Notes: generated by a model not told the origin, from the sequence alone. Counted from the stretch's first letter, positions 7,246 to 52,185 are shown. The stretch: 64,000 bases of DNA from Candidatus Nomurabacteria bacterium RIFCSPLOWO2_01_FULL_39_18 (GCA_001787005.1 MFUV01000006.1:16197-80196), one strand, 5' to 3'. Program-made: numbers and translations.

Positions 7246-9084
7246 ATGGAAATTAGAAATATCGCAATTATTGCGCACGTGGATCATGGCAAGACGACCC
7301 TGACCGATGCTCTGATGAAGCAAAATGGCGCTCTGCAAGATGAAGGAGTGTCAATGGATTCAAATGCTCTAGAAAAAGAGCGTGGTATTACTATCTACTC
7401 AAAAAACACCTCCATCTTTTATAAAGATACTAAGATAAACATTGTAGATACTCCCGGCCACGCGGACTTCGGCGGAGAAGTAGAACGTGTTTTGCGGGCT
7501 ATCGATTCTGTGCTTTTGCTTGTAGACGCAGTCGAGGGACCGATGCCTCAGACTAGATTTGTTTTGAAAAAGTCTTTAGAGCTTGGACTCAAACCCATCG
7601 TAGTTATAAATAAAATAGACAAGCCTGCTTCCGATCCACATCGAGTACATGATGAAATTTTGGGATTATTTTTTGAATTAGGCGCTTCCGAAGAGCAGGC
7701 CAATTTCGAAACGATTTACGCTATCTCGCGCGAGGGGAAAGCCTTCAAGAATCTTGGTGATGAATCCAAGGACCTTTCTCCATTGCTTGATTTAATATTA
7801 GAAAAAGTCGTACCAGCCTCAGGTCGAGAAGATGAAAAAATGTCGGCTCAGGTCTTCAACTTGGGTTATGATAATTTTTTAGGCAGGATGGCTGTTGCGC
7901 GAATTTACTCAGGAAAAATTTTGTCTGGAAGCACTATTTTTGTAAAAGGTCTGCCTGCGCAGGCAGGAGAAAACGGTACGCGAAAGGGGAAAATAACGAA
8001 ACTCTTCACATTCCTCGGAATAAATCGCAAAGAAGTAGAGACTGCTTCTTCAGGTGATATCGTGCTTTTAGCCGGGGTTCCAGACATATATATCGGAGAA
8101 ACTATATGCGAAGATGAAAATACAGAACCATTACCCGCTATCGCGATCGATGAGCCCACTTTATCTCTCAACTTTCTAGTGAACGATTCTCCATTTGCGG
8201 GTCGTGAAGGGAAGTTTGTTACCTCTAGGCAAATCAAAGAAAGATTAGAAAAAGAATTGGAGATAAATGTGGGTCTTAGAGTTGATTTTTCTCCGAACCA
8301 GGGAGATAAAAAATCAGGCCTGCCTGCGCAGACAGGACCGTCTTTTTTCAAAGTCTACGGTCGGGGAGAACTTCACGTAGCAATATTGCTCGAAAATATG
8401 CGCCGGGAAGGTTTTGAGATGCAGGTATCAGAGCCGGAAGTCATTATTAAAGAAAGTAACGGAATAAAAACAGAACCATATGAAGAATTAGTGATCGATG
8501 TTCCGATGGAATTCTCCGGTAGTGTCATAGAAAAGATCGGCAAACGAAGGGGGGTAATGAGGGATATGGTAGAAAAGCAAGGAATTGCAAGGATTATTTT
8601 CGATATACCAACCCGAGGCTTTCTGGGCTATCGTGGGGAATTTATCATAGACACAAAGGGGGAAGGAATAATGTCAGGAAGGGTTACCGGCTTTAAAGAA
8701 TATGCTGGAGAAATTAAAAAAAGAGAGTATGGATCTATGGTTTCTATGGTCTCCGGCAAAGCGGTAGCCTTTTCCCTTGCAAATCTTCAGGAACGTGGTA
8801 TATTGTATATTGAGCACGGAACTGAAGTGTACGAAGGGATGGTCATTGGCAATGTTTTAAAAGGAGATGACATGTCGGTGAATCCTACGAAAGGGAAACA
8901 GCTCACCAATATGCGGGCATCAGGCACTGACGAAGCTATTTCCTTGAATCCGGTTTTCATTTTAAGTATTGAACGAGGTCTTGAGGTTATGAGCGCAGAT
9001 GAGTATTTAGAAATCACTCCGAAATCCGTCAGGCTTCGCAAGAAGTATCTAACCGAAATTGACAGGAAAAAGTCCCGATTATAA
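7246..9084 (+). CDS. typA: TypA/BipA translational GTPase.
   Basis: It has [10 protein letters not shown] and [16 protein letters not shown], with EF-G-like domain order. Two in-frame 18-mer palindrome inserts encode GLPAQAG. Confidence 0.9.
7950..7967. repeat. 18-nt palindrome (t)CTGCCTGCGCAGGCAGG, in frame within typA (LPAQAG).
   Basis: Perfect palindrome; one of four copies. Confidence 0.8.
8319..8336. repeat. 18-nt palindrome copy CCTGCCTGCGCAGaCAGG, in frame within typA.
   Basis: One mismatch from the consensus; encodes LPAQTG. Confidence 0.75.
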
Positions 9085-9091
9085 TCGGGAC
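9072..9091. repeat. Hairpin GTCCCGA-ttataa-TCGGGAC overlapping the typA stop codon.
   Basis: The stem is 7 bp and the TAA lies in the loop. No 3' T-run follows, so a terminator role is uncertain. Confidence 0.35.
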
Positions 9092-9112
9092 AAAATAAAG
9101 AAAAAATTACCT

Positions 9113-9180
9113 GTCCCGTACTAAATTTTGATTACGGGGCATAAAGATAAAGGTTATTAGTAAAATTTTAGTACCGGGAT
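9113..9180 (+). repeat. Long hairpin element with ATCCCG...CGGGAT-like termini; the 3' arm ends in the start codon of the 9179 gene.
   Basis: gtcccgtactaaatttt ...35 nt... aaaattttagtaccgggATG. A near-identical element lies at 22352. Confidence 0.55.
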
Positions 9181-10207
9181 GCCAACAATATCTTTTAAAC
9201 CCAAAAAAGTCACGAAAAAAATAGTTTCCCATCTACAAAGTCGAGCCAGCGATGTTATTTTGAATCGTTTTGGTTTGACCTTGGATGGGACCAGGAAGAC
9301 TCTTGAAGAAATTGGCAAGAAATATAACATAACCAGAGAGCGAGTACGCCAAATTGAAAATGTAGCCATATCTTTGATTAAAAAGTCTCACGCATATAAA
9401 GGGGAGCAAGTGGCTTTCGACGAACTTAAACAATTGGTGCACAAATTAGGATCCATCGTAGCTGAACATGAGCTCTTGTCTCATATTTCGAAGGACAAAG
9501 CAATTCAAAATCATATCCATTTTTATTTAGTGTTGGGCGACGTGTTTAAAAAGCACCGAGAAGACGACCATTTCCATACTCGCTGGAGTGTGGATGATGA
9601 AATGGCAGAAAAAGTGCATGACTCTTTGAAAAAGCTTTATGCAAGTTTAAATGACGAAGATCTTATACCGGAAACGGAGATGATTAAAAAATTCTTTGAT
9701 CATATGAAGGATGTTGCCGAGCAATACAAGAATGAAGAGATGGCTCGAAGATGGCTTTCTATGTCAAAAACAGTTTCCAAAAATCCACTGGGCGAATGGG
9801 GCAAGACGACATCGCCCAACATTCGGACTCGCGGGGTGAAGGACTACGCGTTTCTCGTGATGAGACGCCACGGTTCGCCTATGCATTTTAAAGAAGTTGC
9901 AGATTCCATTTCCAAAACCTTTAATAAAAAAATCCATTATGCCACATGCCACAATGAACTTATTAAAGATTCTAGATTTGTTCTGGTCGGCAGGGGAATG
10001 TATGCTCTGGCTGAATGGGGCTACAAGAAAGGCATTGCCCGTGAAGTCATCCGCGATATTTTAAAAAGAGAAGGTCCGCTTCCTAAAGATGATATTGTTG
10101 CCAAGGTTAATAAAGAAAGGTATTTTAAAAAGAACACCATACTAGTCAATCTTGTTAACCCAAAATACTTCAAGAAAAATAAAAATGGGCTTTATACCGT
10201 GGTTTAA
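9179..10207 (+). CDS. Protein with an N-terminal sigma-70 region-4-like HTH and a C-terminal HARE-HTH/winged-helix-like domain.
   Basis: TLEEIGKKYNITRERVRQIENVAISLIKK matches the sigma r4 signature. The C-terminus reads FLVMRRHGSPMHFKEVADSISK...GRGMYALAEW. Regions 1-3 of a sigma factor are absent. Confidence 0.45.
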   Translation: MPTISFKPKKVTKKIVSHLQSRASDVILNRFGLTLDGTRKTLEEIGKKYNITRERVRQIENVAISLIKKSHAYKGEQVAFDELKQLVHKLGSIVAEHELLSHISKDKAIQNHIHFYLVLGDVFKKHREDDHFHTRWSVDDEMAEKVHDSLKKLYASLNDEDLIPETEMIKKFFDHMKDVAEQYKNEEMARRWLSMSKTVSKNPLGEWGKTTSPNIRTRGVKDYAFLVMRRHGSPMHFKEVADSISKTFNKKIHYATCHNELIKDSRFVLVGRGMYALAEWGYKKGIAREVIRDILKREGPLPKDDIVAKVNKERYFKKNTILVNLVNPKYFKKNKNGLYTVV

Positions 10208-10210
10208 CAC

Positions 10211-10235
10211 CAGATAGAGCTTTAGACTCTATCTG
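10211..10235. repeat. Palindrome CAGATAGAGCTTTAGACTCTATCTG (REP-like).
   Basis: One of four copies, at 10211, 10652, 11131 and 27288. Confidence 0.7.
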
Positions 10236-10246
10236 TAAAATAAATT

Positions 10247-10636
10247 ATGTCAAAACCAGATGAATTTCTAAAAGCTGACAACACAGAAAAAGGCAAAGAA
10301 GCTAGATTGGCAAAAGTATTAAAAAGCCAGAGAGAGAGAGAGTTATCTAGGGTCTTCGAAAAACTTTTTCCACTAAACCAAGAAAGGTACATGTTGGAGT
10401 TTTATGATTTTGAAGAATGGACTAATTTTTTCCGTAAGTTTGGCGAAACAATTAGGATTTTATTATCACTTGATCCATTTGTTGATAATTTGACGCTAAA
10501 AACTGAATGTCAGGAAGTCCTTGTTTTATTAGATGGTCAAGACAGGAATCAGGGTAAAAGATATTCAAGTTTAGTAGAAAAACTCTTTCAATTTTTTATT
10601 GACAATCAAATTTTTCCACCATCAAAGTTACCGTAG
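10247..10636 (+). CDS. Hypothetical protein bracketed by REP-like palindromes.
   Basis: Called from the ORF only; flanked by palindromes at 10211 and 10652. Confidence 0.35.
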   Translation: MSKPDEFLKADNTEKGKEARLAKVLKSQRERELSRVFEKLFPLNQERYMLEFYDFEEWTNFFRKFGETIRILLSLDPFVDNLTLKTECQEVLVLLDGQDRNQGKRYSSLVEKLFQFFIDNQIFPPSKLP

Positions 10637-10651
10637 AATAGAATTACATTA

Positions 10652-10676
10652 CAGATAGAGGTCTAGACTCTATCTG
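10652..10676. repeat. Palindrome CAGATAGAGgTCTAGACTCTATCTG.
   Basis: Member of the family; it closes the frame just upstream of the truncated RAYT. Confidence 0.7.
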
Positions 10677-10681
10677 AGCCC

Positions 10682-11146
10682 TTGGTTGCAATTATTGCTT
10701 ATTGTCTAAATCCAAACCATTTTCATTTTATCTTAAAACAATTAGTTGATGGTGGCATAGCTAAATTTATGCAAAAACTACAAGGAGGTTATACTTATTA
10801 TTTTAATGTAAAAAATTCCCGTACCGGATCGCTTTTTCAAGGAACTTTCAAGTCACATCTCATGAATAGTGAAAATTATTTTAATAAAATTCTTGGGTAT
10901 ACAAATAAAAACTATCAAGTTCACAATATTCCAAAAAATAAAATGGATCTTATTTTCGCTAGCGACTTCGAGTATGAAAATAATAATTTTAAGATTGTTT
11001 CCAAAAAAGAAGGAAAAAGAATTTTGGAAATTTTTAATGGTAGCAAAAATTTTAAGAAACACTGCGATGAGATTGTTTCAATTATTAGAAAAGAAAGAGG
11101 TAAAACTTCTCTTTTAGAAGAAGACAATCTCCCAGATAGAGTCTAA
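10682..11146 (+). pseudogene. N-terminally truncated IS200/IS605-like (RAYT/Y1 HUH) transposase fragment.
   Basis: AYCLNPNHFHFIL matches the HUH motif AYCLMPNHFHVL of the full RAYT at 51467-52105. The region is homologous through GxxxGxFKS, but the N-terminal YHLYNRG part is missing. It begins at a TTG right after a stop inside the palindrome. Confidence 0.6.
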
Positions 11147-11159
11147 AGCTCTATCTGGG
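11131..11159. repeat. Palindrome cCCAGATAGAGTCTAAAGCTCTATCTGGg.
   Basis: Member of the family; it supplies the last codons and the stop of the RAYT fragment. Confidence 0.7.
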
Positions 11160-11203
11160 TATTTTGCTTTGTTTTCTTTACTTTTTGTATTAAAATGTAG
11201 AGT

Positions 11204-12568
11204 ATGGTAGACACTGTGCTTTTCTTTATCTATAAAATTGCGATTGTATGGCTTTTGCCCTTGGCTGGCACAGGATTTGTCGGCTGGGTGGCATGGAAAA
11301 TCTGGGTTCATTACATACAGCAAGATTTTATTTCCGGCATAGATTTTGTTTTACTTGAGGTAATACCCCCGCGCGAAGTCTTGCGTAATCCAAAAGCAAT
11401 GGAACTTTTTATCTCGAACGCCCTATATCATTTCAGCTACAAAGGGGGAAAAGAAGAATATTGGCAAGGTGCTATTTGGTTCTGGTTTTCTTTGGAAATT
11501 GTCTCTCTTGAAGGACAAGTGCATTTTTATATTCGCACGCCGTCAAGAATCAAGGGTTTAATTGAGACGCAAATGTATGCTCAATATCCTCAATCTCAGG
11601 TCAAAGTAGTTGAGGATTATACTTTAGCAGTGGACGAAATAACGCCCGAGAGCGCTTGGAATGGCTGGGGATGCGAGTTTAGATTGCTGAAACCAGAAGC
11701 GTATCCGATTAAAACTTATATTGATTATGGATTAGACAAAGATCCGGATGAAGAATTAAAAGTTGACCCTATTTCTCCGATAATAGAATTTTTTGGCTCA
11801 CTTGGAAAAGGCGAGCAAGCCTGGGTGCAAATTGTGGTTACGCCTTCAAAGAAAATGTATCATACCAAGGGCACCTGGTTTGGAGAGCACGATTGGGTAG
11901 AAGAAGCCAAGCAACAGTTATTCAAATTATTATTACCCTATACTTCTAGAAGAGAAGATATGGGCGAAGGAGAAAAAGTTCTTAAGTTGGCTCGAATTGA
12001 AATTCGTACCCCATCTATTTTAGACAGAGCTACGAAAGCAATGAGCGCAAAAACTTCCAAGCTTGGTTTTGAGACTGGCATCAGGGTAATGTATATAGCC
12101 AAGAAAGAAGTTTATCCGCCCGGTTCGCGAACCAATAATTCTAGAGATATTCGTCTGATCTTTCGTCAATACACAGCTCCAGATGTTAACGGACTGGATC
12201 GAATAAATTCAGCTCAAGGGGACGCTCTTAATAGCAGCATACTTACTCTTTCTAAATATCAAATAATGATTCTGGCCAACCGGATGCTCCACGAATATCG
12301 AGAACGAGCATTTTTCCATCTTCCCCTAAGACATCATCTTTTTTCAATACATGTTTTTGAAAAAATATTCCCCAAACCTGTTATTCATGCAATATTCATG
12401 ACCGTAGTAAAGAAATTTTTCTTGCCTTATGTTCATCATCAGACTTATGTTTTAAACACTGAAGAGCTGGCGGCGCTGTGGCACTTCCCGGGCCAGATAT
12501 TAAAAGTTCCTACGCTTACTCGTATTGAATCTAAAGAAGCTTCTCCGCCTCCAAATTTGCCTATATAG
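11204..12568 (+). CDS. Hypothetical protein with an N-terminal transmembrane segment.
   Basis: Hydrophobic N-terminus IAIVWLLPLAGTGFVGWVAWKIWV. No recognised domain. Confidence 0.4.
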   Translation: MVDTVLFFIYKIAIVWLLPLAGTGFVGWVAWKIWVHYIQQDFISGIDFVLLEVIPPREVLRNPKAMELFISNALYHFSYKGGKEEYWQGAIWFWFSLEIVSLEGQVHFYIRTPSRIKGLIETQMYAQYPQSQVKVVEDYTLAVDEITPESAWNGWGCEFRLLKPEAYPIKTYIDYGLDKDPDEELKVDPISPIIEFFGSLGKGEQAWVQIVVTPSKKMYHTKGTWFGEHDWVEEAKQQLFKLLLPYTSRREDMGEGEKVLKLARIEIRTPSILDRATKAMSAKTSKLGFETGIRVMYIAKKEVYPPGSRTNNSRDIRLIFRQYTAPDVNGLDRINSAQGDALNSSILTLSKYQIMILANRMLHEYRERAFFHLPLRHHLFSIHVFEKIFPKPVIHAIFMTVVKKFFLPYVHHQTYVLNTEELAALWHFPGQILKVPTLTRIESKEASPPPNLPI

Positions 12569-12573
12569 GATGA

Positions 12574-12662
12574 ATCCCGTTAGAGATTACTATATGTTAA
12601 AAATTTTCATTAAAATAAATATGATTACGGAAATGCAAAGCATTTCATATCTCTAACGGGAT
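12574..12662 (+). repeat. Long hairpin element ATCCCGTTAGAGAT...ATCTCTAACGGGAT; its 3' arm abuts and overlaps the mltG start codon.
   Basis: The arms are 14 nt, perfect, with a 61-nt AT-rich spacer. It ends as ...cgggATGaat. Confidence 0.6.
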
Positions 12663-13527
12663 GAATAAATTCAAACTGGTTATTTTAATACTTTGCGCAG
12701 TTGGCTTTCTTTTTTTGTTAAATTCTCCCGTGGATTTTCCTGTTGAAACTATCATTAATATAGAAAAAGGGGAGAGTTTGCGGAGTGTGGCTTTAAAATT
12801 AAAAGAAAACAATGTCATACGTTCTCAAATAGCATTTGAAGCTTTTGTGATAATTTATGGCGGAGAAAAGCACCTAATGTCAGCTGACTATTTCTTTGAA
12901 AAAAAATTACCGGTTTATGAAGTTGCCAGACGTATATCAAAGGGAGAAAGGTATAAAGCGCCAGTAAAAGTAACCATCCCAGAAGGGTTTGATGCGTCCA
13001 TGATAGCAGAAGTTTTTTCCTCCAAGTTGTACGCTTTTGATAAAGAAAAATTCATTTTAGAAACAAAAGCACTGGAAGGTTATCTTTTTCCTGATACTTA
13101 TTTTTTCTTTTCTACTGACACCGAGGAAGAAGTAATCAAGTTGATGCGTGAGAATTTTGAAAATAAATTAGAGCCTCTTCGACCTCAAATTGTCTCAAGT
13201 GGCAGGAGTGAAAGAGAAATTATTGTTATGGCTTCCCTCGTTGAAGGAGAAGCAAAGGGTGACGATGATCGGGATACTATCTCTGGAATTTTATGGAAAA
13301 GGCTTGACATGAAAATGCCGCTTCAAGTGGACGTCGCGCCAGAGACCTATGACAAGGTTGGACTGCCCAAGAATCCAATTGGAAACCCAGGACTCGAAGC
13401 CATCAAAGCCGCGATAACTCCAGAAAAATCGCCTTATCTTTATTATTTGCACAACAAAGATGGCAATATCCACTATGCAAAAAACTTCGAAGAGCATAAA
13501 ATGAATAGACAAAAATATTTGAGATAA
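12661..13527 (+). CDS. mltG: MltG/YceG-like endolytic murein transglycosylase.
   Basis: There is an N-terminal TM segment and the PKNPIGNPGLEAIKAAITPEKSPYLYY region characteristic of the YceG family. Confidence 0.75.
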   Translation: MNKFKLVILILCAVGFLFLLNSPVDFPVETIINIEKGESLRSVALKLKENNVIRSQIAFEAFVIIYGGEKHLMSADYFFEKKLPVYEVARRISKGERYKAPVKVTIPEGFDASMIAEVFSSKLYAFDKEKFILETKALEGYLFPDTYFFFSTDTEEEVIKLMRENFENKLEPLRPQIVSSGRSEREIIVMASLVEGEAKGDDDRDTISGILWKRLDMKMPLQVDVAPETYDKVGLPKNPIGNPGLEAIKAAITPEKSPYLYYLHNKDGNIHYAKNFEEHKMNRQKYLR

Positions 13528-13534
13528 AACCCGG

Positions 13535-14062
13535 ATGAAGAAACACAAATTAGCTTTCATAGACATAGAGAGTACCGGACTCGATGTGATAAAACACGAG
13601 ATTGTTGAAATTGGGTGCGTCTTGACTACTCCCGACCTTAAGGTGATCGAAGAATTTGAATTAAAAATAAAACCGGAACACATAGAAAATTCCGACCCCG
13701 TTTCTTTGAAGATTAGTCATTACGATAAGGAAAGTTGGGAGAATGCTTTTACTTTAGAGAAAGCCATGAAAATTCTTTCTAAAAAAACGAAGGATGCCAT
13801 TATGGTCGGGCAAAATGTCGCTTTTGATTCTGGATTTCTAGAACATGCTTTTTCCAAAGTGGGGATTGCTAACAGCATGCATTACCACAAACTCGACACT
13901 ATCTCAATCGCTTGGGCAAAGTTGCACAAGGAGCCAGACTTAGAACATTTCTCCTTACGCGAAATGTGCGTGCGTTTCGGTATCAAAAATGAACATGCGC
14001 ATACAGCGCTCTCTGATGCTCGAGCGACTTTCGAGCTTTACAAAAAGCTGATGGAGCTGTAA
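13535..14062 (+). CDS. DEDDh 3'-5' exonuclease (DnaQ/epsilon-like).
   Basis: It has FIDIESTGLD (Exo I) and HTALSDARATFELY (Exo III). Confidence 0.7.
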   Translation: MKKHKLAFIDIESTGLDVIKHEIVEIGCVLTTPDLKVIEEFELKIKPEHIENSDPVSLKISHYDKESWENAFTLEKAMKILSKKTKDAIMVGQNVAFDSGFLEHAFSKVGIANSMHYHKLDTISIAWAKLHKEPDLEHFSLREMCVRFGIKNEHAHTALSDARATFELYKKLMEL

Positions 14063-14091
14063 AATCAAAAAACTATGAAATATACTTTTTA

Positions 14092-14162
14092 AGGGGTTTT
14101 GCGAGCGACGGCGAGCAAACTTCAGGATTTTTTAAGCTTCAAAAAATCCGTACCGGCAAAAA
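14092..14162 (-). repeat. Intergenic REP-like ~70-nt element, in inverted orientation relative to the copies at 763, 15083 and 26558.
   Basis: Its reverse complement matches ttccggtacggatttttcgaagcttaaaaaatcctgaagttttcgcgccgtcgcgctc. It contains an internal ggatttttt...aaaaaatcc hairpin. Confidence 0.65.
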
Positions 14163-14193
14163 GTTATATTTGATAGTTTTTTGAATATCATTT

Positions 14194-15393
14194 ATGAAAA
14201 AAAAAGTTGTTTTTGTCGGACTTTCGGGGGGCGTTGATTCTGCGGTTTCAGCAACCATACTAAAGAAGCAAGGTTTTGAAGTCGTGGGAGTTTTTATCAA
14301 AACCTGGCACCCAGATTTTTTAGAATGTAACGAAGAGGAAGAGCGTCGCGATGCCATGCGCGTGGCAGCATATTTGGATGTTCCTTTTTTAACATTTAAT
14401 TTAGAAAGTGTTTATAAAAAAGAAGTTGCAGATTACATGATTTCTGAATATAAAACTGGACGGACGCCGAATCCAGATGTGATGTGTAATAAAAAAGTGA
14501 AGTTTGGCGCGTTTCTCAAAAAAGCTATTTCCATGGGAGCTGATTTTGTGGCGACGGGGCACTATGCGCAAGTTGGCGAAGCTGGAAACTACTTTTTATC
14601 AGGTCCTCGGATTCCTGGGTCCCTCCCCCAGCCAGACCATGCTAAAAAGTATTTCCAGCTTCGCCAAGGTCCGGATAAGTCCAAAGACCAAAGCTATTTT
14701 CTTTGGACCCTTAAACAAGAGCAACTTTCGAAAATAATTTTTCCAGTTGGAGATTTAAAAAAGACAGAAGTGAGAAAATTGGCTAAAAAGTTTAGACTGC
14801 CTGTGGCAGAGAAGAAAGACAGTCAGGGAATATGTTTCCTGGGCGCGGTGGATTTAAAAGAGTTTTTAAAACATTATATAAAAGAAAAAAAGGGAAAAGT
14901 GCTGAATACCGAAGGTGAAATAATAGGGTGGCATAATGGCGCGGTTTTTAATACGCTTGGAGAGCGGCATGGTTTTACAATTACAAAAAAGGGTCCAAAT
15001 GACGGACGATATTATATTGTTGCTAAAGATGTTAAGAAAAATATTTTGATCGTGTCTCAAGAAAAAAATTATCTTACAAAGAGCACGGATATTTTTTTGC
15101 TAAAAAATTCCTCGTACTCGCGCCAGTCGCGCTCGCAAGTCTCTTTGCAAGACAATTTTTTTCTTTCGCTAGAAAATGTAAATTGGATTTCTAAAGTTCC
15201 AGATTCAAATAAAAATTATACCGCTCAAATTCGTTACCATGGAAAATTTTTATCATGCAAAGTAAAGGTCGTAGATCCCGAGCGGAAGCGAAGGGCTGAA
15301 ATAATTTTTAGAAAACCGATCATGGTTGCCTCCGGCCAGTCCTGCGTTGTTTATGATAAAGACGTCTGTCTGGGCGGAGGGGTGGTGAAATAA
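14194..15393 (+). CDS. mnmA: tRNA 2-thiouridylase MnmA.
   Basis: It has the PP-loop SGGVDSAVSA, GHYAQV and DQSYFLW. An in-frame REP-like insert sits at 15083-15150. Confidence 0.85.
   Translation: MKKKVVFVGLSGGVDSAVSATILKKQGFEVVGVFIKTWHPDFLECNEEEERRDAMRVAAYLDVPFLTFNLESVYKKEVADYMISEYKTGRTPNPDVMCNKKVKFGAFLKKAISMGADFVATGHYAQVGEAGNYFLSGPRIPGSLPQPDHAKKYFQLRQGPDKSKDQSYFLWTLKQEQLSKIIFPVGDLKKTEVRKLAKKFRLPVAEKKDSQGICFLGAVDLKEFLKHYIKEKKGKVLNTEGEIIGWHNGAVFNTLGERHGFTITKKGPNDGRYYIVAKDVKKNILIVSQEKNYLTKSTDIFLLKNSSYSRQSRSQVSLQDNFFLSLENVNWISKVPDSNKNYTAQIRYHGKFLSCKVKVVDPERKRRAEIIFRKPIMVASGQSCVVYDKDVCLGGGVVK
15083..15150 (+). repeat. Intragenic, in-frame REP-like element inside mnmA.
   Basis: gcacggatatttttttgctaaaaaattcctcgtactcgcgccagtcgcgctcgcaagtctc encodes ...SSYSRQSRSQVSLQ..., like the SRSQVS in the 763 copy. 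Confidence 0.6.
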
Positions 15394-15432
15394 AACCTTT
15401 TCTTTTACAGTCTTTTATAGTACAATTATTCC

Positions 15433-15903
15433 ATGTCTGAATTTTTAGCGCAAAATGGTGAAATTATTTTAAGATTAGTGGTGGCAGTAGGGCTGGGGAT
15501 GCTGATAGGAGCGGAGAGGCTCTTGGTGAGGGAAGCGGCGGGTATGAAAACTCACGCCCTGGTATCTCTTGGCTCGGCACTATTTATAATTGTTTCTGAA
15601 ATGCTTGCTATTAAATATGCGGGCGTTGGGGGTTTCGACCCGGCTAGAATTGCTTCACAGGTGATTGTCGGTATTGGATTTTTGGGCGCTGGTTCGATTA
15701 TCCTTCAGGGTTCTCGGCTGATTGGGCTGACAACTGCGGGCGGGTTATGGGTCACAGCTGGCATCGGCATGGCTGTTGGGTTCAGGCTTTTTTCTATGGC
15801 TATAATTGCGACGGTGCTTGTGCTTTTTATATTGGTTATTGGCAATCTCCTAGAGAAGCCTATTAGGAAAATTTCTGGGGAGATAGATCAGCCCAAAGGT
15901 TAA
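15433..15903 (+). CDS. MgtC/SapB family membrane protein.
   Basis: LRLVVAVGLGMLIGAERLLVREAAGMKTHALVSLGSALF matches the MgtC N-terminal domain. Confidence 0.65.
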   Translation: MSEFLAQNGEIILRLVVAVGLGMLIGAERLLVREAAGMKTHALVSLGSALFIIVSEMLAIKYAGVGGFDPARIASQVIVGIGFLGAGSIILQGSRLIGLTTAGGLWVTAGIGMAVGFRLFSMAIIATVLVLFILVIGNLLEKPIRKISGEIDQPKG

Positions 15904-15913
15904 ATAAAAAAAG

Positions 15914-17758: not shown

Positions 17759-17763
17759 TAAAG

Positions 17764-18651: not shown

Positions 18652-18684
18652 TCATTATAAATACATTATGTTATAATCAACCAG

Positions 18685-19878: not shown

Positions 19879-19895
19879 GCGGGGAAAATAAAATT

Positions 19896-27339: not shown

Positions 27340-28995
27340 ATGAACCAAGAGACTAAAAACTGTATTGATTGCAAAAATGAATTTGAAATAGATTCCGGTG
27401 ATTTGGTTTTGTATGAAAAAATTGGCTTAAAAATTCCGGAGCAGTGCTTCTTTTGTCGGATAAAACAGTATTCTGCTTTTTGGGTTTTTGGAAAATTCAG
27501 GAAGGGGGTCTCAAATTTATCAGGAGAAAGTTTGATTACTGTTTTGCCCTCTAGTCCGAGATATCCTATTTACACATCACATGAATGGTGGGGAGATGCG
27601 TGGGACCCGATGACTTTTGGGCAAGATTATAATTCATCTAGACCCTTTTTTGACCAATTAAAAGAACTTCAAGAAAAAATTCCCCGACCACACCAAGTTA
27701 GTTCAAAGAGTACCAACTGCGACTGGTGTGACGATTCTTGGGATTCAAAGAATTGTTATCTTTGCAGGTCTATTTTAAAATGTGAAAATACAAGTTATGG
27801 TTATCGGATTATAGAAACGAAAGATTCTTTTGATATAGTTTATTCTTTTAATTTACAAAATTCTTACAATTGTTTATTGTGTTACAATTCTTTCAATTTA
27901 AATTTTTCAGAGAATTCCAAAGATTGCATAGACTCGTATTTTCTTTTCGATTGTCGAAATTGTCAGAATTGCTTTATGTGCTGGAATTTACGCAATAAAC
28001 AGTATTGTATTCGAAATAAGCAGTACACAAAAGAAGCATATGAACAAGAACTTAAAAATATTAAATTAGATTCTTATGAAAATGTTGAAAATCTAAAGAA
28101 TGAACTTGAAAATATGTTAAAAAACGAAGCTGTGCATCGCGAGAATTTTAATTTGAAAACTACCAATTCTATTGGGAATTACATGACTAATTGCGACAAG
28201 TGTGTAAATGTTTTTTCTTGGGAAAATTCACAAAATTCACGCAATTCATTAAGGGGTTTAAATACCAAAGATTGTATAGATCAATTAGGTTGTTGGAATA
28301 ATGAAATTTCAGGAGACAATAGCTGTGTCACGGGTGGTTACGAAATAAAGCATTCGTCTTGGTCTGACGGCCGATATTCAGAGTACATCGATCTGTGTAT
28401 TGAAGTTGAACATTGCTTTGGTTGTGTCGGTCTTCGTAAAAAGAAATATTGTATCCTGAATAAACAATATGAGAAAGAAGAATATGAAATTCTGAAAGAT
28501 AAAATTATAAAGGATATGGAAAAAAGGGGAGAATATGGAAAATACTTACCATATTCTATGGGTATATGTGATTATAATTTGTCTAATGGTTTTGTTTATT
28601 TTCCCCAAACTACTAAAGAAGAAATAATAAAAAAAGGTGGCTACTGGTCAGAAGAAAACTTGTCTTCTAAGGATGGGATTTCTTCCGCAAAGCTTCCGGA
28701 TAGTATTCTAGACACAAAACCAGAAATTACTTCACAAGCTCTTATCTGTCCGGAAACTCACTACAGATTTAACATCTCACAAGATGAGTATGAATTTCAC
28801 AAAAATAAAAATTTTGCTTTACCCCGAATACATTTTGATTTAAGAATATTAAAAAAAGTAAAGAAAATTACCGCACTTAGGGGTTATCCCTACCAATGTA
28901 TTTATTGCTCAAAAAACATCAATGCCTATTATCCGCCAGAATGGGGATACCAAAAAATCGCCTGCGAAGATTGTTATAAAAAAAATATCGCCTAA
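27340..28995 (+). CDS. Large cysteine-rich protein, paralog 1 of 5. It has an N-terminal CxxC-17-CxxC zinc ribbon, a central Cys-repeat region and two C-terminal zinc ribbons.
   Basis: The N-terminus reads KNCIDCKNEFEIDSGDLVLYEKIGLKIPEQCFFCR. Repeated NCxxC...CxNCxNCFxCxNLRNKQYCIxNKQYTKEAY units follow. The C-terminus contains two CxxC pairs (CIYCSKN...CEDCYKKNIA); the YAPERPEIVYCEKCYQQEVY tail of paralogs 2-5 is absent. Confidence 0.55.
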   Translation: MNQETKNCIDCKNEFEIDSGDLVLYEKIGLKIPEQCFFCRIKQYSAFWVFGKFRKGVSNLSGESLITVLPSSPRYPIYTSHEWWGDAWDPMTFGQDYNSSRPFFDQLKELQEKIPRPHQVSSKSTNCDWCDDSWDSKNCYLCRSILKCENTSYGYRIIETKDSFDIVYSFNLQNSYNCLLCYNSFNLNFSENSKDCIDSYFLFDCRNCQNCFMCWNLRNKQYCIRNKQYTKEAYEQELKNIKLDSYENVENLKNELENMLKNEAVHRENFNLKTTNSIGNYMTNCDKCVNVFSWENSQNSRNSLRGLNTKDCIDQLGCWNNEISGDNSCVTGGYEIKHSSWSDGRYSEYIDLCIEVEHCFGCVGLRKKKYCILNKQYEKEEYEILKDKIIKDMEKRGEYGKYLPYSMGICDYNLSNGFVYFPQTTKEEIIKKGGYWSEENLSSKDGISSAKLPDSILDTKPEITSQALICPETHYRFNISQDEYEFHKNKNFALPRIHFDLRILKKVKKITALRGYPYQCIYCSKNINAYYPPEWGYQKIACEDCYKKNIA

Positions 28996-29084
28996 AAATT
29001 AAAAAAGCATAATAGTACAATAAACGCTACCGCTACCATTGTACTATTATTGTTTTTTTTATTATAAAATGATAAAATATTTTC

Positions 29085-30794
29085 ATGAATAGAGAAACTC
29101 ATAAATGTCAAAACTGCAAAAAAGATTTCATCATCGAGCCGGACGATTTTTCTTTTTATGAAAAAATAAAAGTTCCTCCGCCGACTTTTTGCCCGGAGTG
29201 CCGCATGATCCGACGTTTGTACTGGCGTAATGAACATTCTCTCTTTCGTAGACCCAACAGCACCCCAGGGTTCTCAGGGGAACACATTTCTATCTATCAT
29301 CCAGATGCGAAAATTACTTCTTATGATAAAGAAATGTGGTGGAGTGACAAATGGGACCCTTGCGACTATGGCGCGGATTATGATTTCGACAGACCATTTT
29401 TTGAACAATTCAAGGAGCTTTTAGAGAGGGTTCCGCATGTATCGTTTTTTGAGGGTAAATCAATAAATGCAAAATTTTGTAACTATGTTGTTGAGTTGAA
29501 AAATTGTTATTTAGTGACTGCTACTTGGAGATGCGAGGATTCAATGTATGGCAATCGTCTTTTTGAATGTAAATTTACCCACGATTCCTACATTTGTTCT
29601 CATACTGAATTTTGTTATGAAAATGTATATTGTAGCGACTCAAACCGACTATTTTTCTCCAGAGAAAGCGAGAATTGTTTGGATTCTTACTTTTTATATG
29701 ACTGTCGCAATTGCTCTAATTGCATTTTGAGTACAAACTTAAGAAACAAAAGTTACTGCATAGAGAATGTACAATACTCAAAAGAAGAATATTTTAAAAA
29801 GAAAAAAGAATTAGAGTTGAATACTAGATCAGGCATTAAAAAAGCAAATAAAAAATTTGAAAAACTATGGCAGAATGCATTCCATAAACACCTCAAGCTC
29901 ATTAACACCAATAATGTGGTCGGAGATCATGTTTCTAATTCACGCAATGCATACTACATTTTTGATTTCAGAGACGATGCGGAAAATGTGAAATATGCGC
30001 ATTGGGGTAATGGAGGATTAAAAGATTCCTATGATACAGGTCCGGGCTGTGGATATAAATCAGAAATGGGTTATGAAGGTGTGAGTACTGGTGATAAAAA
30101 TTATAAAACTTACTTTTGTGTCACGGTGTGGTATTCGAGGGATATCTACTATAGCCTTATGCTGAGTGATTGCCATGATTGCTTCGGGTGTGCCGAAATG
30201 CACAACAAGCAGTATTGTATTTTGAATAAGCAGTATACTAAAGAAGAATATCAAAATTTGTTACCTAGAATAATCAAACACATGAAGGAAATGCCATATG
30301 TTGACAAGGTGGGCAGGTCATATGAATTTGGAGAATTTTTTCCGGGAGAATTATCCCCGTTCGCTTATAATGAAACTGTAGCTCAAGATTATTTTCCAAT
30401 TGGGAAAGAAGATGCAGAATCAAGAGGATATTTATGGCGTGAATATATTCCCAATACTTACAAGACTACCGTAAAAGGGAACGAACTCCCCCAAACGATT
30501 TCCGAAGTTGATGATTCCATTCTTCATCAAGTAATTGAATGCGAAATAACTAAAAAGCCTTTTAAAATTACAGAACAAGAGTTGAGTTTTTATAGGAGGT
30601 TGGATTTGCCATTACCCTCTACTCATCCTGATGAACGACATAATCAAAGATTGAAATTAAGAAATCCGATGACTCTAAGGAAAAGGATGTGTTATTTTGG
30701 CGATAAAGAAGTTGATACAACTTATTTATTGGAAGAAGAAGGTGGTCCTCAAAAAGTAGTTTGCACAGAACATTATAATAAAGAGGTATATTAA
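29085..30794 (+). CDS. Large cysteine-rich protein, paralog 2.
   Basis: The N-terminus is MNRETHKCQNCKKDFIIEPDDFSFYEKIKVPPPTFCPECR and it has the same Cys-repeat architecture. Confidence 0.55.
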   Translation: MNRETHKCQNCKKDFIIEPDDFSFYEKIKVPPPTFCPECRMIRRLYWRNEHSLFRRPNSTPGFSGEHISIYHPDAKITSYDKEMWWSDKWDPCDYGADYDFDRPFFEQFKELLERVPHVSFFEGKSINAKFCNYVVELKNCYLVTATWRCEDSMYGNRLFECKFTHDSYICSHTEFCYENVYCSDSNRLFFSRESENCLDSYFLYDCRNCSNCILSTNLRNKSYCIENVQYSKEEYFKKKKELELNTRSGIKKANKKFEKLWQNAFHKHLKLINTNNVVGDHVSNSRNAYYIFDFRDDAENVKYAHWGNGGLKDSYDTGPGCGYKSEMGYEGVSTGDKNYKTYFCVTVWYSRDIYYSLMLSDCHDCFGCAEMHNKQYCILNKQYTKEEYQNLLPRIIKHMKEMPYVDKVGRSYEFGEFFPGELSPFAYNETVAQDYFPIGKEDAESRGYLWREYIPNTYKTTVKGNELPQTISEVDDSILHQVIECEITKKPFKITEQELSFYRRLDLPLPSTHPDERHNQRLKLRNPMTLRKRMCYFGDKEVDTTYLLEEEGGPQKVVCTEHYNKEVY

Positions 30795-30821
30795 AAATGA
30801 CATTATGTCATTTTACAAAAT

Positions 30822-32553
30822 GTTAGAATGAATAATCAAAGCGAAAAAAGAATATGCCAGAATTGCAAAAAGGACTTCACCATCGAGCCGGATGATTTTG
30901 GATTTTATGGAAAATAAAAGTTCCACCACCGACGTTTTGTCCGGAATGCAGACTTCAGAGAAGATTTGCCTGGCGGAACGAGCGGGCGCTTTACAAGCGC
31001 AAATGTGACTTATGCAAGAAAGATATTATTGCCATGTACCATGATTCTGTTTCATTCCCAGTATATTGTAGGGAGTGTTGGTGGGGAGATGGATGGGATG
31101 CTTCTTCTTACGCACGAGATTACGATTTTAATAAAAGTTTTTTTGAACAATTTAGTGAACTCTTAAAAGTTGTTCCGCGGCTCGCCCTTTTTCAAAGAAA
31201 TATAGTTAATTCAGATTATAGCAATATGGTTGTGGAATCAAAGAATGTTTATCTTTCTCATTCAGTAACCCAAAAATCTGAAAATGTTTTTTATTCGAAA
31301 AGCGTTGATGCCTCTCGAGACATATTTGATTCTCTGAATATTATTAACGGGTCGGAAAATTTATATGAAAATGTCGAGGCGCAGGGGAATTATAATTCGC
31401 AATACCTTTTACTCTGTCGTGGTGTGCTTGACTCTTATTATTGTGTGGATTGCATCAATTGTAGCAGTTGTTTTATGTCTTACAATTTGCGTAATAAACA
31501 GTTTAATATTCGCAATAAGCAATATACACGAGAAGGATATTTAAAAGAGCTTGAAAAATTAAATTTTAAAAGTCACCAAGCAAGGGAGGCTCTGCAGGGG
31601 GAATTCGAGGAAATAAAGAAGAAAGCTATTTATCGTTTCGGCAACATTACAAAATGTGTAGATGTTACTGGTAATAATCTGCTTAATGTTAAGAACGCCA
31701 AGGATTGTTTCGAGATATATGAGGCAGAGAACTGTAAATTTTGTTACAGGGCTCTATATGTCAAAGACTGTATGGATTTTACTTTTGGTGGCTGGTCGGA
31801 ATTGTGTTATGAGTATGTTACCGGTTCCATAAACAATTACAATGTTAAATTTTCCTCCAATGCTTTTAGTGTTCGTGATGCAGACTATGCTGATTATTGC
31901 ATGGACTGCAACAGTATTTTCGGATGTATTGGTCTCAAAAAGAAAGAAAATGCAATTTTGAATTGAATAGAGTTTATTCTAAAGAAGAATTTATAAAGTT
32001 AAGAGAAGAAATTATCAAGCAGATGAAAAAAATACCTTATGTGGATAAAAAAGGAAATGTTTATGAATACGGAGAATTTTATCCAACAGAGCTATCTACC
32101 TGGGCTTACAATGAAACCCTAGCACAGGAAATTTTCCCCTTAAGTAAAGAAAAAGCGGAGAAAAATGGTTATTCGTGGTGCGAACCAGCCGTAAAAAATT
32201 TCGATATAACTATGCCAGCAGAGAAAATTCCTGATAATATAGATAATGCAGGGGAGGAGATTCTGAAAGAAATTTTGGGTTGTGCGCACAAAGGGGACTG
32301 CGATCATCAATGTAGCACGGCTTTTCGATTAACTGACTATGAATTAAAATTTTATAAAAAACACGACATACCGCTTCCTATTCTTTGTTCCAACTGCCGT
32401 TATTACGAAAGAGTCAAAGTCATGCCCGCATTGAAACTTTGGCATCGAAAATGTATGAAAAGCGGATGTCCAAATGAATTCGAAACAGCGTACGCGCCAG
32501 AACGTCCGGAAATAATTTACTGTGAGAAGTGCTATCAGCAGGAAGTATATTAA
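30822..32553 (+). pseudogene. Cysteine-rich family paralog 3, disrupted by at least two frameshifts.
   Basis: The N-terminal fragment MNNQSEKRICQNCKKDFTIEPDDFGFYGK* stops at an A-run near 30913 (ggaaaataaaag against gaaaaaataaaag in paralog 2). The sequence continues in another frame (31034..31966). A second break near 31960 precedes the C-terminal part (31897..32553), which ends YAPERPEIIYCEKCYQQEVY. Confidence 0.6.
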
Positions 32554-32618
32554 AAAACAAAAACCATGATAACACCATGATAACACAATAACAGCGGTAG
32601 CGTCCATTGTGTTATTAT

Positions 32619-33125
32619 CTAGTTCTTAAAACTTTCAAAAAATATTTTCTTCGATATTTCGTCAATGTTGTTTGTGGTAAAAATTACCATCTCTGTTGTG
32701 AGTCCGAGATCCCTTTTTATATTTGTGAAAAGATATTCGTAAGGGTAAGGAGAAATCCAAGCGGAATTTTTAAGACAAACAAAACCAGCTTTTTTCAGAA
32801 GATAGCGCAGAGACTCACGTTCACTTTTTCTCTCTTCTGGTAAGTCGAGCAGAATTATTCTCCAGAATCCGTCCCAAGCTTGGGGGACTAGCGCATCTTC
32901 GCTTCCAAGTGTCATTGTGTTTAATCTACTTTTTCCATGAGCTGTGATTTTGGCATAATTTTGCCTTTCCGTTTTGTGAATCTCGGCGTAGCCACCTTCT
33001 ACCAAGTTTTTGAGCGCGCGAGATATAGCATAGGAGGTTTTTATGTCCCCATCCTTTAATTCTTCGACAGAGATTGCAGGTTTTTCGGAAAGTTTTTTGA
33101 GTATTTTCCTCGAATGACTTGACAT
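32619..33125 (-). CDS. PaaX-like winged-helix transcriptional regulator.
   Basis: There is an N-terminal wHTH, and the C-terminal WDGFWRIILLDLPEERKSERESLRYLLKKAGFVCLKNSAWISP matches the PaaX_C WDGxW...LPE...G(F/W) pattern. Confidence 0.5.
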   Translation of the reverse strand: MSSHSRKILKKLSEKPAISVEELKDGDIKTSYAISRALKNLVEGGYAEIHKTERQNYAKITAHGKSRLNTMTLGSEDALVPQAWDGFWRIILLDLPEERKSERESLRYLLKKAGFVCLKNSAWISPYPYEYLFTNIKRDLGLTTEMVIFTTNNIDEISKKIFFESFKN

Positions 33126-33223
33126 ACTTATAGCCTATCATATATACTCTCATTATACAAGTTTTTAGCGGTCGCAAATTAAATGTTCAAAAAATTATTA
33201 GTATAAAATAACCATATAAAACA

Positions 33224-35161
33224 ATGTCAAAAATCATAGGTATAGATTTGGGTACAACAAATTCAGCAGTAGCCGTCATAGAAGGAGGCGCACCGAAGAT
33301 TATAGAAAATGCAGAGGGAAATCGTACGACCCCCTCTGTGGTTTCGGTCGCCAAGAATGGCGACAGGCTTGTCGGACTTCTTGCTAAAAGGCAGGCAGTT
33401 ACCAACCCGGAAAATACAATTTACGGGATCAAGCGTTTCATGGGTCATAATTTTGAAGACCCGGAGGTGCAGAAAGATTTGAAAAATGCGTCATTCAAAG
33501 TTCAGAAAGGAGCCACCGGCGGAGTGGAAGTAAAAATTGGTGATAAATGGATGCGCCCAGAAGAAATCTCCGCGATGATTCTGTCAAAAATAAAATCTGA
33601 TGTGGAAGCGAAATTGGGAGTGAAAATTACTGAAGCGGTCATAACTGTGCCGGCATACTTCAACGATGCGCAAAGAAAAGCAACCAAAGATGCGGGGCAA
33701 ATTGCCGGGCTTGATGTGAAGCGTATCATCAATGAGCCGACAGCCGCCGCTCTCGCCTATGGATTCAATAAAAAGAAAAATGAAAAGATCGTAGTGTTTG
33801 ATTTCGGCGGGGGAACATTTGATGTGTCTGTGCTCGAGATTGGTGATGATGTAGTTGAAGTTAAGTCCACTGATGGCGACAGCCACCTCGGAGGCCGCGA
33901 TATTGATCACAAGATAATCAACTGGATTGCAGAAGAATTTAAAAAAACTTCTGGCGTGGATGTGCGTTCTGACAAGCTTGCTCTACAACGTCTGGACGAA
34001 GCGGCAGAAAAAGCGAAAATCGAGCTCTCAACCGCCATTGAAACAGAAATTAATATTCCATTCATCACTTCTACGGCGCAAGGCCCGCAACACTTACTTC
34101 TTAAAATGACTCGAGCCCAGCTCGAATCTATCGCTGATGAATATATAGCTCGTTCGATAGAGATAACGAAGCGCGCGATGGCTTCTTCTGGTTTTAAGAT
34201 TGAAGATATGAATGAAATAGTGATGGTGGGTGGGCAGACCAGAATGCCGAAGATCGTTGAGGAAGTGAAAAAGGTTTTCAATAAGACCCCAAACTTAACT
34301 ATCAACCCGGATGAAGTCGTGGCTCTCGGCGCCGCTGTGCAGGCGGGGGTATTGCAAGGAGATGTGCGAGATGTTCTACTCCTTGACGTGATACCACTTT
34401 CGCTTGGCATTGAGACATTGGGCGGAGTGGCCACTAAATTAGTTGAAAGAAATACGACTATTCCTTCAAATAAGTCGCAAGTGTTTTCTACTGCGGCTGA
34501 CAACCAGACTTCCGTAGAAATTCACATTACTCAAGGCGAGCGTCCAATGGCGAGCGACAATAAATCTTTGGGACGATTTATACTAGATGGTGTACCACCA
34601 GCACCGAGGGGCATGCCCCAAATAGAAGTGTCCTTTGATGTGGATGCCAATGGAATTCTAAATGTTACGGCAAAAGACAAAGCCAGTGGCAAGACCCAGT
34701 CCATTAAAATTGAAGCAAGTTCAGGACTCAAAGAAGAAGATATTAAAAAGATGCAAGCCGACGCGGAGCTTCATGCTGAAGAAGACAAAAAGAAAAAAGA
34801 CGTTGTGGATACAAAAAATACCGCAGAGATGATTATTTACACTGCTGAGAAAGCGCTGAAGGACAACGAAGCGAAAATTCCGGCAGAATTAAAAGATAAC
34901 GTGAATGCTAAGATCACAGCACTGCGAACCGCAAAAGACCTGCCTGCGCAGGCAGGTGGCACGGATTCAGATGCAATCAAAAAAGCGACCGAGGAACTTT
35001 CAACCGAAATGTCTAAAATTGGAGAAGCGATTCAGAAAAATTCACCCGAATCCGCAGGAGGCGGGCAGGCCAAGGCTCCCGAAGAACAGCCGACAGAAGT
35101 CAAAGACGCAGAATTCAAAGAAAAAAAAGAAGGGGAAGAAGGTGAATCTCCAAAAGCGTAA
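33224..35161 (+). CDS. dnaK: Chaperone DnaK (Hsp70).
   Basis: [24 protein letters not shown] and [15 protein letters not shown] are present. There is an in-frame 18-mer palindrome insert (DLPAQAGGT) near the C-terminus. Confidence 0.95.
34939..34956. repeat. Perfect 18-nt palindrome CCTGCCTGCGCAGGCAGG, in frame within dnaK.
   Basis: Encodes LPAQAG. Confidence 0.8.
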
Positions 35162-52158: not shown

Positions 52159-52185
52159 TGATATCAGCTTTTATATATCATGTAT

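Follow-up and report, generated by a model that had tools for sequence, protein, structure and literature searches.

The question raised by a 64,000-nucleotide stretch of the genome of Candidatus Nomurabacteria bacterium RIFCSPLOWO2_01_FULL_39_18 (the whole stretch, at its full length, is called the window here) is why an 18-nucleotide palindrome, CCTGCCTGCGCAGGCAGG, which we name PAL, lies in frame inside the genes typA, grpE and dnaK of an ultra-small bacterium from groundwater. As shown by the comparisons described below, PAL enters DNA as an exact 18-bp unit, without target duplication or base loss; it occupies protein genes, tRNA-like sequences and spacers, and its presence differs between close genomes. 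PAL is very likely a selfish palindrome that inserts recurrently and is then filtered by selection, and it is probably a miniature, non-autonomous palindromic mobile DNA element whose survivors have passed through that filter.

When up to three mismatches were allowed, exactly four matches to PAL were found in the window, at 7950, 8319, 27215 and 34939, and none was found in 100 dinucleotide-preserving shuffles of the window; a window-wide search for copies at two to five mismatches also gave none. An initial annotation had described a perfect palindrome at four sites. The four sites stand, and perfection is confined to the 34939 copy, around which the palindrome reaches 20 nt (34938-34957), each of the other three carrying one transition. 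The shared reading frame was borne out, as all four copies start at codon offset 1 and encode L(P/S)AQ(A/T)G. PAL is built as (CCTG)2-CG-(CAGG)2, is six codons long and has a stop codon in none of its six frames, and on direct reading its remaining two frames encode PACAGR and CLRRQ. The three host open reading frames (ORFs) were identified by comparison with solved structures and from precomputed Pfam hits, and the copies lie in them as follows.

7246-9084, + strand: host gene typA/bipA, 612 aa (relatives without PAL, 598-604 aa)
7950-7967: PAL copy 1, TCTGCCTGCGCAGGCAGG (C1T), in TypA domain II, read G-LPAQAG
8319-8336: PAL copy 2 (G14A), in a loop of TypA domain III, read G-LPAQTG
26676-27302, + strand: host gene grpE, 208 aa
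27215-27232: PAL copy 3 (C5T), in the turn of the GrpE C-terminal beta-hairpin, read D-LSAQAG
33224-35161, + strand: host gene dnaK, 645 aa
34939-34956: PAL copy 4 (perfect), in the DnaK C-terminal region, read D-LPAQAG

All four copies are true insertions, as had been proposed, each being an 18-bp gap in close relatives. At the protein level, the GrpE copy is an exact 6-residue gap relative to three solved GrpE structures, and the DnaK copy an exact 6-residue gap relative to E. coli DnaK; in alignments, TypA site 1 is a 5-residue gap relative to solved homologues, and TypA site 2 falls within a 13-residue gap relative to E. coli BipA. At the DNA level, the empty GrpE site of locus L124 (87% identical) reads GGC GAA CGC, where the window has GGC GA[PAL]A CGC, and the empty DnaK site of loci L126 and L128 reads AAG GAC GGC, where the window has AAA GA[PAL]T GGC. 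The nearest TypA relative, P0121 on locus L277 (95.5% protein and 86% DNA identity), is syntenic with the window, is exactly 12 residues shorter and lacks both TypA copies, with AAA GGC GAA at site 1 (window, AAA GG[PAL]A GAA) and TCA GGA CCA at site 2 (window, TCA GG[PAL]A CCG). The insertion points are GG^A, GG^A, GA^R and GA^T, so that all four 18-mers split a G-R-N codon between positions 2 and 3. A target-site duplication was seen in none of the four filled/empty comparisons, and no target bases were lost either. As had been claimed for GrpE, most relatives are empty at this position and read GYKLG[ED]RV.

The distribution of PAL was followed in 120 relatives of GrpE (71-100% identical), placed on a rough neighbour-joining tree, and in 121 TypA sequences (85-95% identical). 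In GrpE, PAL is present in two separate tip lineages, namely the species of the window and P0006, which lies on a distant branch and carries a perfect PAL in its DNA at the identical codon. Six of the 121 TypA sequences bear PAL, at 4 sites; PAL occurs at site 235 in four cases, one of them a decayed LPAQSG, and at the SG^PSFF site in two, and every PAL-bearing TypA has empty nearest neighbours. In both families, PAL is thus sporadic and located at tips, and its positions are reused. Filled and empty sites therefore coexist among close relatives, a point that the initial annotation had proposed to check in sister genomes. It had also considered that orthologues might already carry LPAQAG at these positions, and this holds in part, because some relatives share the TypA or GrpE positions, in the form of the identical DNA palindrome. 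As these shared positions bear the same palindrome, scattered over tips and next to empty neighbours, they are most readily explained by recurrent insertion or loss, and not by ancestral residues.

The beta-turn codon of GrpE also receives at least three further types of insert, DLPAGKAG, DPS[TKM]GSG[HQ]G and DP[RH]QGG[AT]G, carried by P0015, P0016, P0019, P0040, P0054, P0059, P0063, P0082, P0088 and P0102 and by loci L126-L128. These inserts are scattered over the tree, each beside empty relatives, which indicates that the codon is an indel hotspot. The DNA of DLPAGKAG is CCTGCCTGCCGGCAAGGCAGG, with PAL-like arms; DPSTGSGHG and DPRQGGAG were rejected as types of PAL, their DNA not being palindromic, and are either ordinary loop-length variants or heavily decayed inserts. 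Recurrence is likewise seen at site 235 of TypA, where about 25 relatives have 4 inserted residues (GNVD or GDIE).

Two of the four window sites can be placed on predicted structures. In the AlphaFold model of GrpE (55 sequences, mean predicted local distance difference test score, pLDDT, of 80), the insert corresponds to residues 181-186 and is predicted to form the loop that joins strand 175-178 to strand 187-190, pLDDT falling below 50 for residues 181-183. TypA site 1 (residues 236-241) is modelled between strands 230-234 and 245-249, also with pLDDT below 50. TypA site 2 is located by its alignment gap, because the TypA model is unreliable beyond residue 300, and the DnaK site by the gap it meets towards the C terminus of E. 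coli DnaK, a region that we take, from the known structure, to be the helical lid. The suggestion that PAL is accommodated in surface loops is consequently upheld by the low-confidence hairpin loops of the GrpE and TypA site 1 models, and for the other two sites the evidence is the alignment gap.

Outside the window, PAL was sought in two independent scans, one of a single genome per species with the pattern CTGYCTGCGCAGRCAG, which gave at least 119 stretches, and one of metagenome contigs with the exact 18-mer, which gave at least 120. Although the pattern left the outer C and G unspecified, most of the genome matches listed run to the full 18-mer. Judging from record titles, Patescibacteria (WWE3, Microgenomates, Parcubacteria, Saccharibacteria and Dojkabacteria) account for about 40% of the genome loci listed, and the other labels among the matches listed include Saprospiraceae, Sphingobacteriales, Cytophagales and 'uncultured Gammaproteobacteria'. 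Some of the 'Gammaproteobacteria' loci bear short pilin-like genes, which presumably are Patescibacteria-like, so that these labels may be wrong. In L071, the one non-Patescibacteria case checked, the CoaD encoded beside PAL shares 75-78% identity with its counterparts in cultured Pedobacter and Mucilaginibacter, and the contig is therefore genuinely Bacteroidota. An estimate from base composition gives a chance expectation for the 18-mer, at 40% GC, of less than one per hundreds of Gb, and matches in high-GC contigs could be due to chance; two thirds of the metagenome matches listed are in contigs below 50% GC, many of them from groundwater projects. The shuffles and the two collection scans thus place PAL far above chance, which answers the call in the initial annotation for a test of its enrichment. 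A scan of viral contigs for a phage vector gave no clear signal: of its 25 stretches, most had 58-67% GC, a range in which matches by chance are to be expected.

Reading frames were counted in contigs below 50% GC, over ORFs of at least 150 aa and with duplicate contexts removed. Frame 1 was used by 22 of the 31 genic copies among the genome matches listed (p = 2e-5) and by 38 of the 53 among the metagenome matches listed (p = 1e-8), which means that about 70% of the in-gene copies among the matches listed are in the LPAQAG frame. This strong bias indicates that the insert is translated. About two thirds of the low-GC copies listed fall within ORFs of at least 150 aa, and roughly a quarter to a third are non-coding. 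Host proteins outside the window, recognised by eye from translations, include TruB, FtsW, TopA, MurD, MurE, NifS, TrmD, GatB (at two different sites), PolA, RecJ, UvrD, UvrA, RNase H, ScpB, Obg, L15, PheT, CysS, IleS, ArgS, a pilin and GrpE at a second site. Non-coding copies were found between tRNA genes, on both sides of a 5S rRNA gene, in the loop of a larger hairpin, before T-runs in a terminator-like arrangement, and inside tRNA-Gln-like and tRNA-Leu-like fragments. Because the hosts are unrelated housekeeping genes and non-coding DNA, including tRNA-like fragments and spacers, the proposed link of PAL to heat-shock and stress genes was abandoned, specificity for stress genes being ruled out by the host lists.

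Four arrangements in these collections are described for their own sake. In L200 (9466-9802), PAL occupies the terminal loop of a helix in a weak match to RNase P RNA (23 bits, E = 4.6e-5), the 3′ part of which overlaps a GIY-YIG ORF. In L051 (4709) and L169 (8602), PAL directly precedes a pilin-like N-terminal hydrophobic segment (…REAG-LPAQAG-WTLAELLIV…), so that the glycine encoded by PAL takes what is presumably, as in type IV pilins, the position before the prepilin cleavage site. In L184, a 20-nt PAL variant (1480-1499) lies 46 nt before the 5S rRNA gene and PAL itself (1800-1817) lies 150 nt after it; the 23S match there does not extend past model position 2632 (of 2925), and the 3′ region of the 23S gene may therefore hold an insertion. 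In L071, PAL is the inner end of 91-nt inverted repeats (3390-3480 and 5735-5825, 88% complementary) that bracket 2.25 kb encoding an unknown protein, an RsmD-like methyltransferase and CoaD.

When each flank is read towards PAL, the adjoining base is a purine in 56-87% of copies, on either side and in every category, non-coding copies included. A G at position -2 is enriched upstream of frame-1 copies only (62%), and the residues preceding an in-frame PAL are mostly G, D and S. The -1 purine (R-PAL-Y) is read as a property of the element or of its target, and the -2 G as codon-level selection, because splitting a GGN, GAN or AGY codon retains Gly, Asp or Ser before the insert. The flanks of PAL contain no conserved tetranucleotide, and in particular no GTAG or CGTC tag.

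In 1.24 Mb of low-GC loci, 18-mers with 0, 1, 2, 3 and 4 mismatches numbered 135, 24, 7, 6 and 6, many of the perfect copies being those by which the loci were picked, and shuffles of these loci contained essentially no 18-mer within 3 mismatches of PAL. Even when this selection is allowed for, so steep a spectrum suggests that copies are young or are removed soon after decay starts. The variants are single transitions, and no compensatory double change was found among the low-GC copies. Some orthologous pairs keep PAL perfect in flanks that are only 77-80% identical, a biased measure of conservation, since it was for their PAL that both members had been chosen, and the G14A variant shared by L062 and L081 indicates that some copies are inherited. 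The predicted fold of PAL, a 7-bp stem capped by a GCGC loop, has an energy of -6.5 kcal/mol in DNA and -11 kcal/mol in RNA; the DNA fold is weakened to -2.8 kcal/mol in the 8319 copy and to -3.3 kcal/mol in the 27215 copy, and the RNA fold of the 8319 copy to -4.6 kcal/mol. Length variants whose arms match those of PAL lie near it in several loci, as a 12-mer, CCTGCCGGCAGG, as CCTGCC-N4-GGCAGG and as a 20-nt perfect palindrome, CCTGCCTGCCGGCAGGCAGG, the last being a consensus derived from imperfect copies; a 16-mer also exists. Locus L254 holds three PAL-like units within 80 nt. The sole in-gene member of the 20-nt type that was found, in GrpE of L126, is 21 nt long, which fits a filter for lengths in multiples of three.

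These observations bear on whether PAL could be a selected functional DNA site, serving in protein binding, uptake or self-recognition in the manner of parS, of DNA uptake sequences and uptake signal sequences (DUS/USS) or of the highly iterated palindrome HIP1, with its presence in genes being incidental. Such a site would explain why the identical 18-mer recurs in distant lineages, including the genuine Sphingobacteriales contig, why several orthologous copies stay perfect or share a variant, and why decayed copies are few. It is nevertheless an unlikely explanation, because all tested copies are insertions and not motifs built by substitution, PAL is scattered over the tips of the TypA and GrpE trees, mutations have already reached three of the four window copies, weakening the DNA hairpin in two of these, and the conservation in orthologous pairs carries the bias just described. 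The density of PAL is also low for such a role: the window has 4 copies in its 64 kb, and about 67 kb of loci from relatives contain no copy.

A tiny mobile palindrome, comparable to the intragenic Rickettsia palindromic elements (RPEs) to which it was originally likened, remains the best reading, given that its insertions are polymorphic and far above chance. If PAL is such an element, selection would filter its insertions so that the in-gene survivors are mostly in frame 1 and at positions that tolerate indels. A frame-1 copy would add a small, flexible LPAQAG peptide, and the split after codon position 2 would keep the Gly, Asp or Ser codon conservative; copies would then decay by C-to-T transitions and be quickly lost. 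The most speculative step is mobilisation, which may occur in trans on single-stranded DNA through the 7-bp hairpin with its GCGC loop. The enzyme might be a hairpin-recognising protein of the HUH/Y1 type, either a REP-associated tyrosine transposase (RAYT; REP, repetitive extragenic palindrome) or an IS200-like 'peel and paste' transposase, and two such genes are present in the window. By analogy with IS200/IS605, whose hairpin-dependent HUH transposition leaves no duplication, this route for PAL is conceivable and is put forward tentatively. The two units are the following.

51434-52159, - strand: RAYT-like unit 1, with a Y1/HUH gene at 51467-52105; putative candidate for a trans-acting enzyme
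10197-11166, + strand: RAYT-like unit 2, with a 129-aa ORF at 10247-10636 and a Y1-like ORF at 10682-11146; putative candidate

The gene of unit 1 has a match to Pfam PF01797, and its translation contains NHFHVLV as HUH motif and YIHLNP as tyrosine motif; against the NCBIfam model REP_Tyr_transpos it scores 32.7 bits, below the cutoff of 80. It is bracketed by inverted hairpins, ACACAGGC-N3-GCCTGTGT, at 51434-51470 and 52129-52159. Unit 2 shows 37% identity to the RAYT-like gene of unit 1 (tblastn); its Y1-like ORF is bracketed by hairpins of the form AGATAGAG-N7-CTCTATCT, which lie in the unit at 10212, 10653 and 11134, and a fourth copy at 27309 is part of a 47-nt palindrome (27287-27333) right after the grpE stop codon. 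The 970-bp block of unit 2 is absent from the syntenic relative L277. The RAYT gene of L066 is flanked by CTTAGAGGTG-N-CACCTCTAAG hairpins and not by PAL. PAL was rejected as the cognate repeat of the window RAYT genes, since their flanking hairpins differ from it in sequence. In both of the genome loci that hold a RAYT gene, L060 and L066, PAL lies within 200 nt of it; tight adjacency of PAL and RAYT was dropped as evidence, as it was seen in these two genome loci and not in four metagenome loci. The RAYT gene of unit 1 with its two inverted hairpins (AAATACACAGGC-N3-GCCTGTGTATTT) has the classic RAYT/REP or IS200-like layout, here in a Patescibacteria genome, and a literature search found no paper linking RAYT genes or REPINs (REP doublets forming hairpins) to Patescibacteria.

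Several points weigh against a mobile palindrome of this kind. We infer the mobility of PAL from comparisons of filled and empty sites. The same codons are reused (TypA 235 and the GrpE turn), which could reflect target specificity or precise loss. The available candidates leave PAL without an enzyme tied to it, because the RAYT genes of the window and of L066 have hairpins of their own, and in the four metagenome loci PAL and RAYT are 0.6-4.9 kb apart. A single perfect hairpin without conserved flanks is not known to be a substrate of any IS200/IS605 or REP system. Identity of sequence across phyla is also unusual for REP-type repeats, which are species-specific.

A second possible partner is a family of GIY-YIG homologues, of which about 2 Mb of loci yielded six, five of them no more than 450 nt from a PAL; a homologue search found no GIY-YIG gene in the window. 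Small GIY-YIG ORFs of about 75-90 aa are present in L180 (11340-11830), L058 (1725-2105) and L078 (6730-7175). In the GIY-YIG cassettes, the gene is accompanied by a tRNA that is intact (Leu or Gln) and by a duplicate tRNA fragment into which PAL is set, between G10 and T11 in the case of tRNA-Gln; in L180, direct repeats of 45 nt, PAL included, lie at either end of a cassette of GIY-YIG and tRNA-Leu. The cassette may be mobile and may target tRNA genes. As several of the GIY-YIG contexts are homologous to each other and all lie in rare non-coding DNA, their association with PAL may be passive.

This arrangement raises the alternative that PAL is a footprint or 'solo' remnant, in which 9-bp termini, CCTGCCTGC|GCAGGCAGG, were left joined after a larger element had been excised or after recombination between two PALs, for example those of a GIY-YIG cassette. 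The PAL repeats around the L180 cassette, the proximity of the GIY-YIG homologues to PAL and the position of PAL at the inner ends of the L071 inverted repeats would all fit. This origin also appears improbable, for no separated half-sites beyond chance occur in the window, and the loci hold none beyond short length variants. A cassette in TypA, GrpE or DnaK would have disabled an essential gene before its excision, the L071 segment carries ordinary housekeeping genes, and the GIY-YIG cassettes occupy scarce non-coding DNA, where PAL can persist anyway, and are missing from the window. A split element of the form CCTGCCTGC ... GCAGGCAGG was itself sought in the window and the loci and was discarded, the search having returned short length variants.

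The alternative offered with the initial annotation, that PAL is an mRNA hairpin regulating the translation or stability of stress genes, draws on the RNA fold of the perfect copy and on the three window hosts, which are chaperones or translation factors. It is very improbable in view of the generic housekeeping genes and non-coding DNA that host PAL elsewhere, and it does not agree with the two window copies that are weakened as DNA, one of which, at 8319, is also weakened as RNA. Sense-strand variants compatible with U-G pairing are not clearly favoured over those creating C-A (about 12 against 7, tallied by eye), a bias in codon frame would be needless for an RNA element, and close relatives do without the insert.

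Selection for the LPAQAG peptide itself, as a sortase-like LPxTG or protease motif with the palindrome secondary, is scarcely credible even though frame 1 dominates and one copy reads LPAQTG, which fits LPxTG. The codons are invariant over hundreds of copies, with no synonymous variation, the same DNA is found in the two other frames and in non-coding DNA, and the window hosts are, by their known functions, presumably cytoplasmic proteins. An assembly, adapter or amplification artefact, which a perfect GC-rich palindrome in an AT-rich genome might bring to mind, is ruled out for practical purposes by an identical PAL-bearing GrpE on 16 contigs (those listed, four in number, trace to four separate JGI and ENA samples), by the individual point mutations of the copies, by the preservation of frame in conserved genes and by recovery from many unrelated projects.

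A recurrently inserting palindrome filtered by selection would serve as a natural map of insertion-tolerant positions in DnaK, GrpE, TypA, TopA, PolA and aminoacyl-tRNA synthetases, and would let loops vary rapidly in organisms whose genomes are minimal. Strains in groundwater metagenomes could be told apart by whether they carry it, and its inserts disturb the alignment and annotation of Patescibacteria proteins. A bolder version, which we regard as rather doubtful, is that PAL is the smallest mobile DNA so far, an active 'nano-transposon' with a fixed 18-bp sequence that crosses phyla, inserts precisely, makes no duplication and continuously remodels the loops of essential proteins in Patescibacteria. 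The hairpin might then hijack an HUH or GIY-YIG nuclease, be it the host's own or one acquired horizontally; alternatively, it might be moved by the replication or repair machinery without a dedicated transposase. If active, PAL would set a new lower size limit for mobile DNA and would raise the question of which enzyme places a bare hairpin so exactly in lineages as distant as Patescibacteria and Bacteroidota. A literature search found no description of this 18-mer or of LPAQAG.

Other features of the window were noted in passing. The recR gene (ORF 52615-53325, - strand) contains a perfect 48-nt palindrome in frame at 52818-52865, with 22-bp arms and a 4-nt loop; it encodes about 16 residues, MREARPNANALGLASR, within a 13-residue gap relative to solved RecR, and is about 700 nt from RAYT-like unit 1. 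RecR has about 28 extra residues between two aligned stretches (query residues 60-88), and the core of the 48-nt palindrome, searched for as a shared family, had no match in 153 loci. The cysS gene (ORF 48205-49620, - strand) contains a GC-rich near-palindrome of 34 nt (48992-49025) that encodes FSAKGGSASGGN, in a loop 4 residues longer than that of solved CysS. A scan for further inserts as GC-rich islands gave 53 peaks, mostly conserved motifs, and was too noisy to be used. A PIN-domain gene with a small upstream ORF (21337-21932) is toxin-antitoxin-like, and a homologue of TraG/TrwB-like coupling proteins (717 aa, 36618-38771) lies downstream of dnaK.

Among known systems, RPEs offer the closest parallel in protein genes. 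They are about 100-150 bp long (30-50 residues) and confined to Rickettsia; reportedly, what they add is a surface segment, which is why proteins tolerate them, and they are said to occur in RNA genes and spacers as well. Like RPEs, PAL inserts in frame at tolerated positions of protein genes; unlike them, it is 18 bp long (6 residues), a length that by itself excludes membership, presumably has no relation to RPE sequences, and ranges over Patescibacteria and into at least one genome of Bacteroidota. REPs are extragenic, imperfect, 20-40 nt long and species-specific, and they flank their own RAYT gene. PAL is like REPs, bacterial interspersed mosaic elements (BIMEs) and REPIN-RAYT systems in being a short GC-rich hairpin with many copies, and RAYT-like genes with inverted hairpins are present in the window. 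REPs carry a GTAG or CGTC tag (PMC3733652). PAL, in contrast, is mostly intragenic, perfect, untagged and the same across phyla, and it flanks no RAYT gene seen here.

Elements of the IS200/IS605 type, which depend on hairpins and make no target duplication, need two different ends, left and right, that carry guide sequences, as well as a fixed target of 4-5 nt. Like these elements and their hairpin miniatures, PAL inserts without duplication, but it is a single symmetric hairpin with a weak target, G-R^N in genes and R^Y overall, and no fixed tetranucleotide. It differs from miniature inverted-repeat transposable elements (MITEs) derived from DDE transposons in showing no target-site duplication in the four filled/empty comparisons, and from intrinsic terminators and regulatory RNA hairpins in that the window copies lie in the middle of ORFs and transitions break their pairing, with none compensatory among the low-GC copies. 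HIP1 of cyanobacteria and DUS/USS arise by substitution and leave no gap relative to orthologues. PAL resembles them as a short in-gene motif with a frame bias towards tolerable peptides; unlike them, every tested copy of it is an 18-bp insertion.

The GC clusters of yeast mitochondria make short target duplications. Mobile GC-rich palindromes of organelles have been described as palindromic elements in Volvox (PMC2670323) and as coding palindromes in Nematomorpha (PMC6649704). PAL is similar to these organellar palindromes in being GC-rich, spread in AT-rich genomes and sometimes located in coding sequence with the frame kept, whereas they are organellar, longer and lineage-specific. PAL thus resembles RPEs and REP-type repeats in kind, lacks the features that define membership of either, and is set apart from both by how small and how exact it is and by a sequence that stays identical from phylum to phylum.

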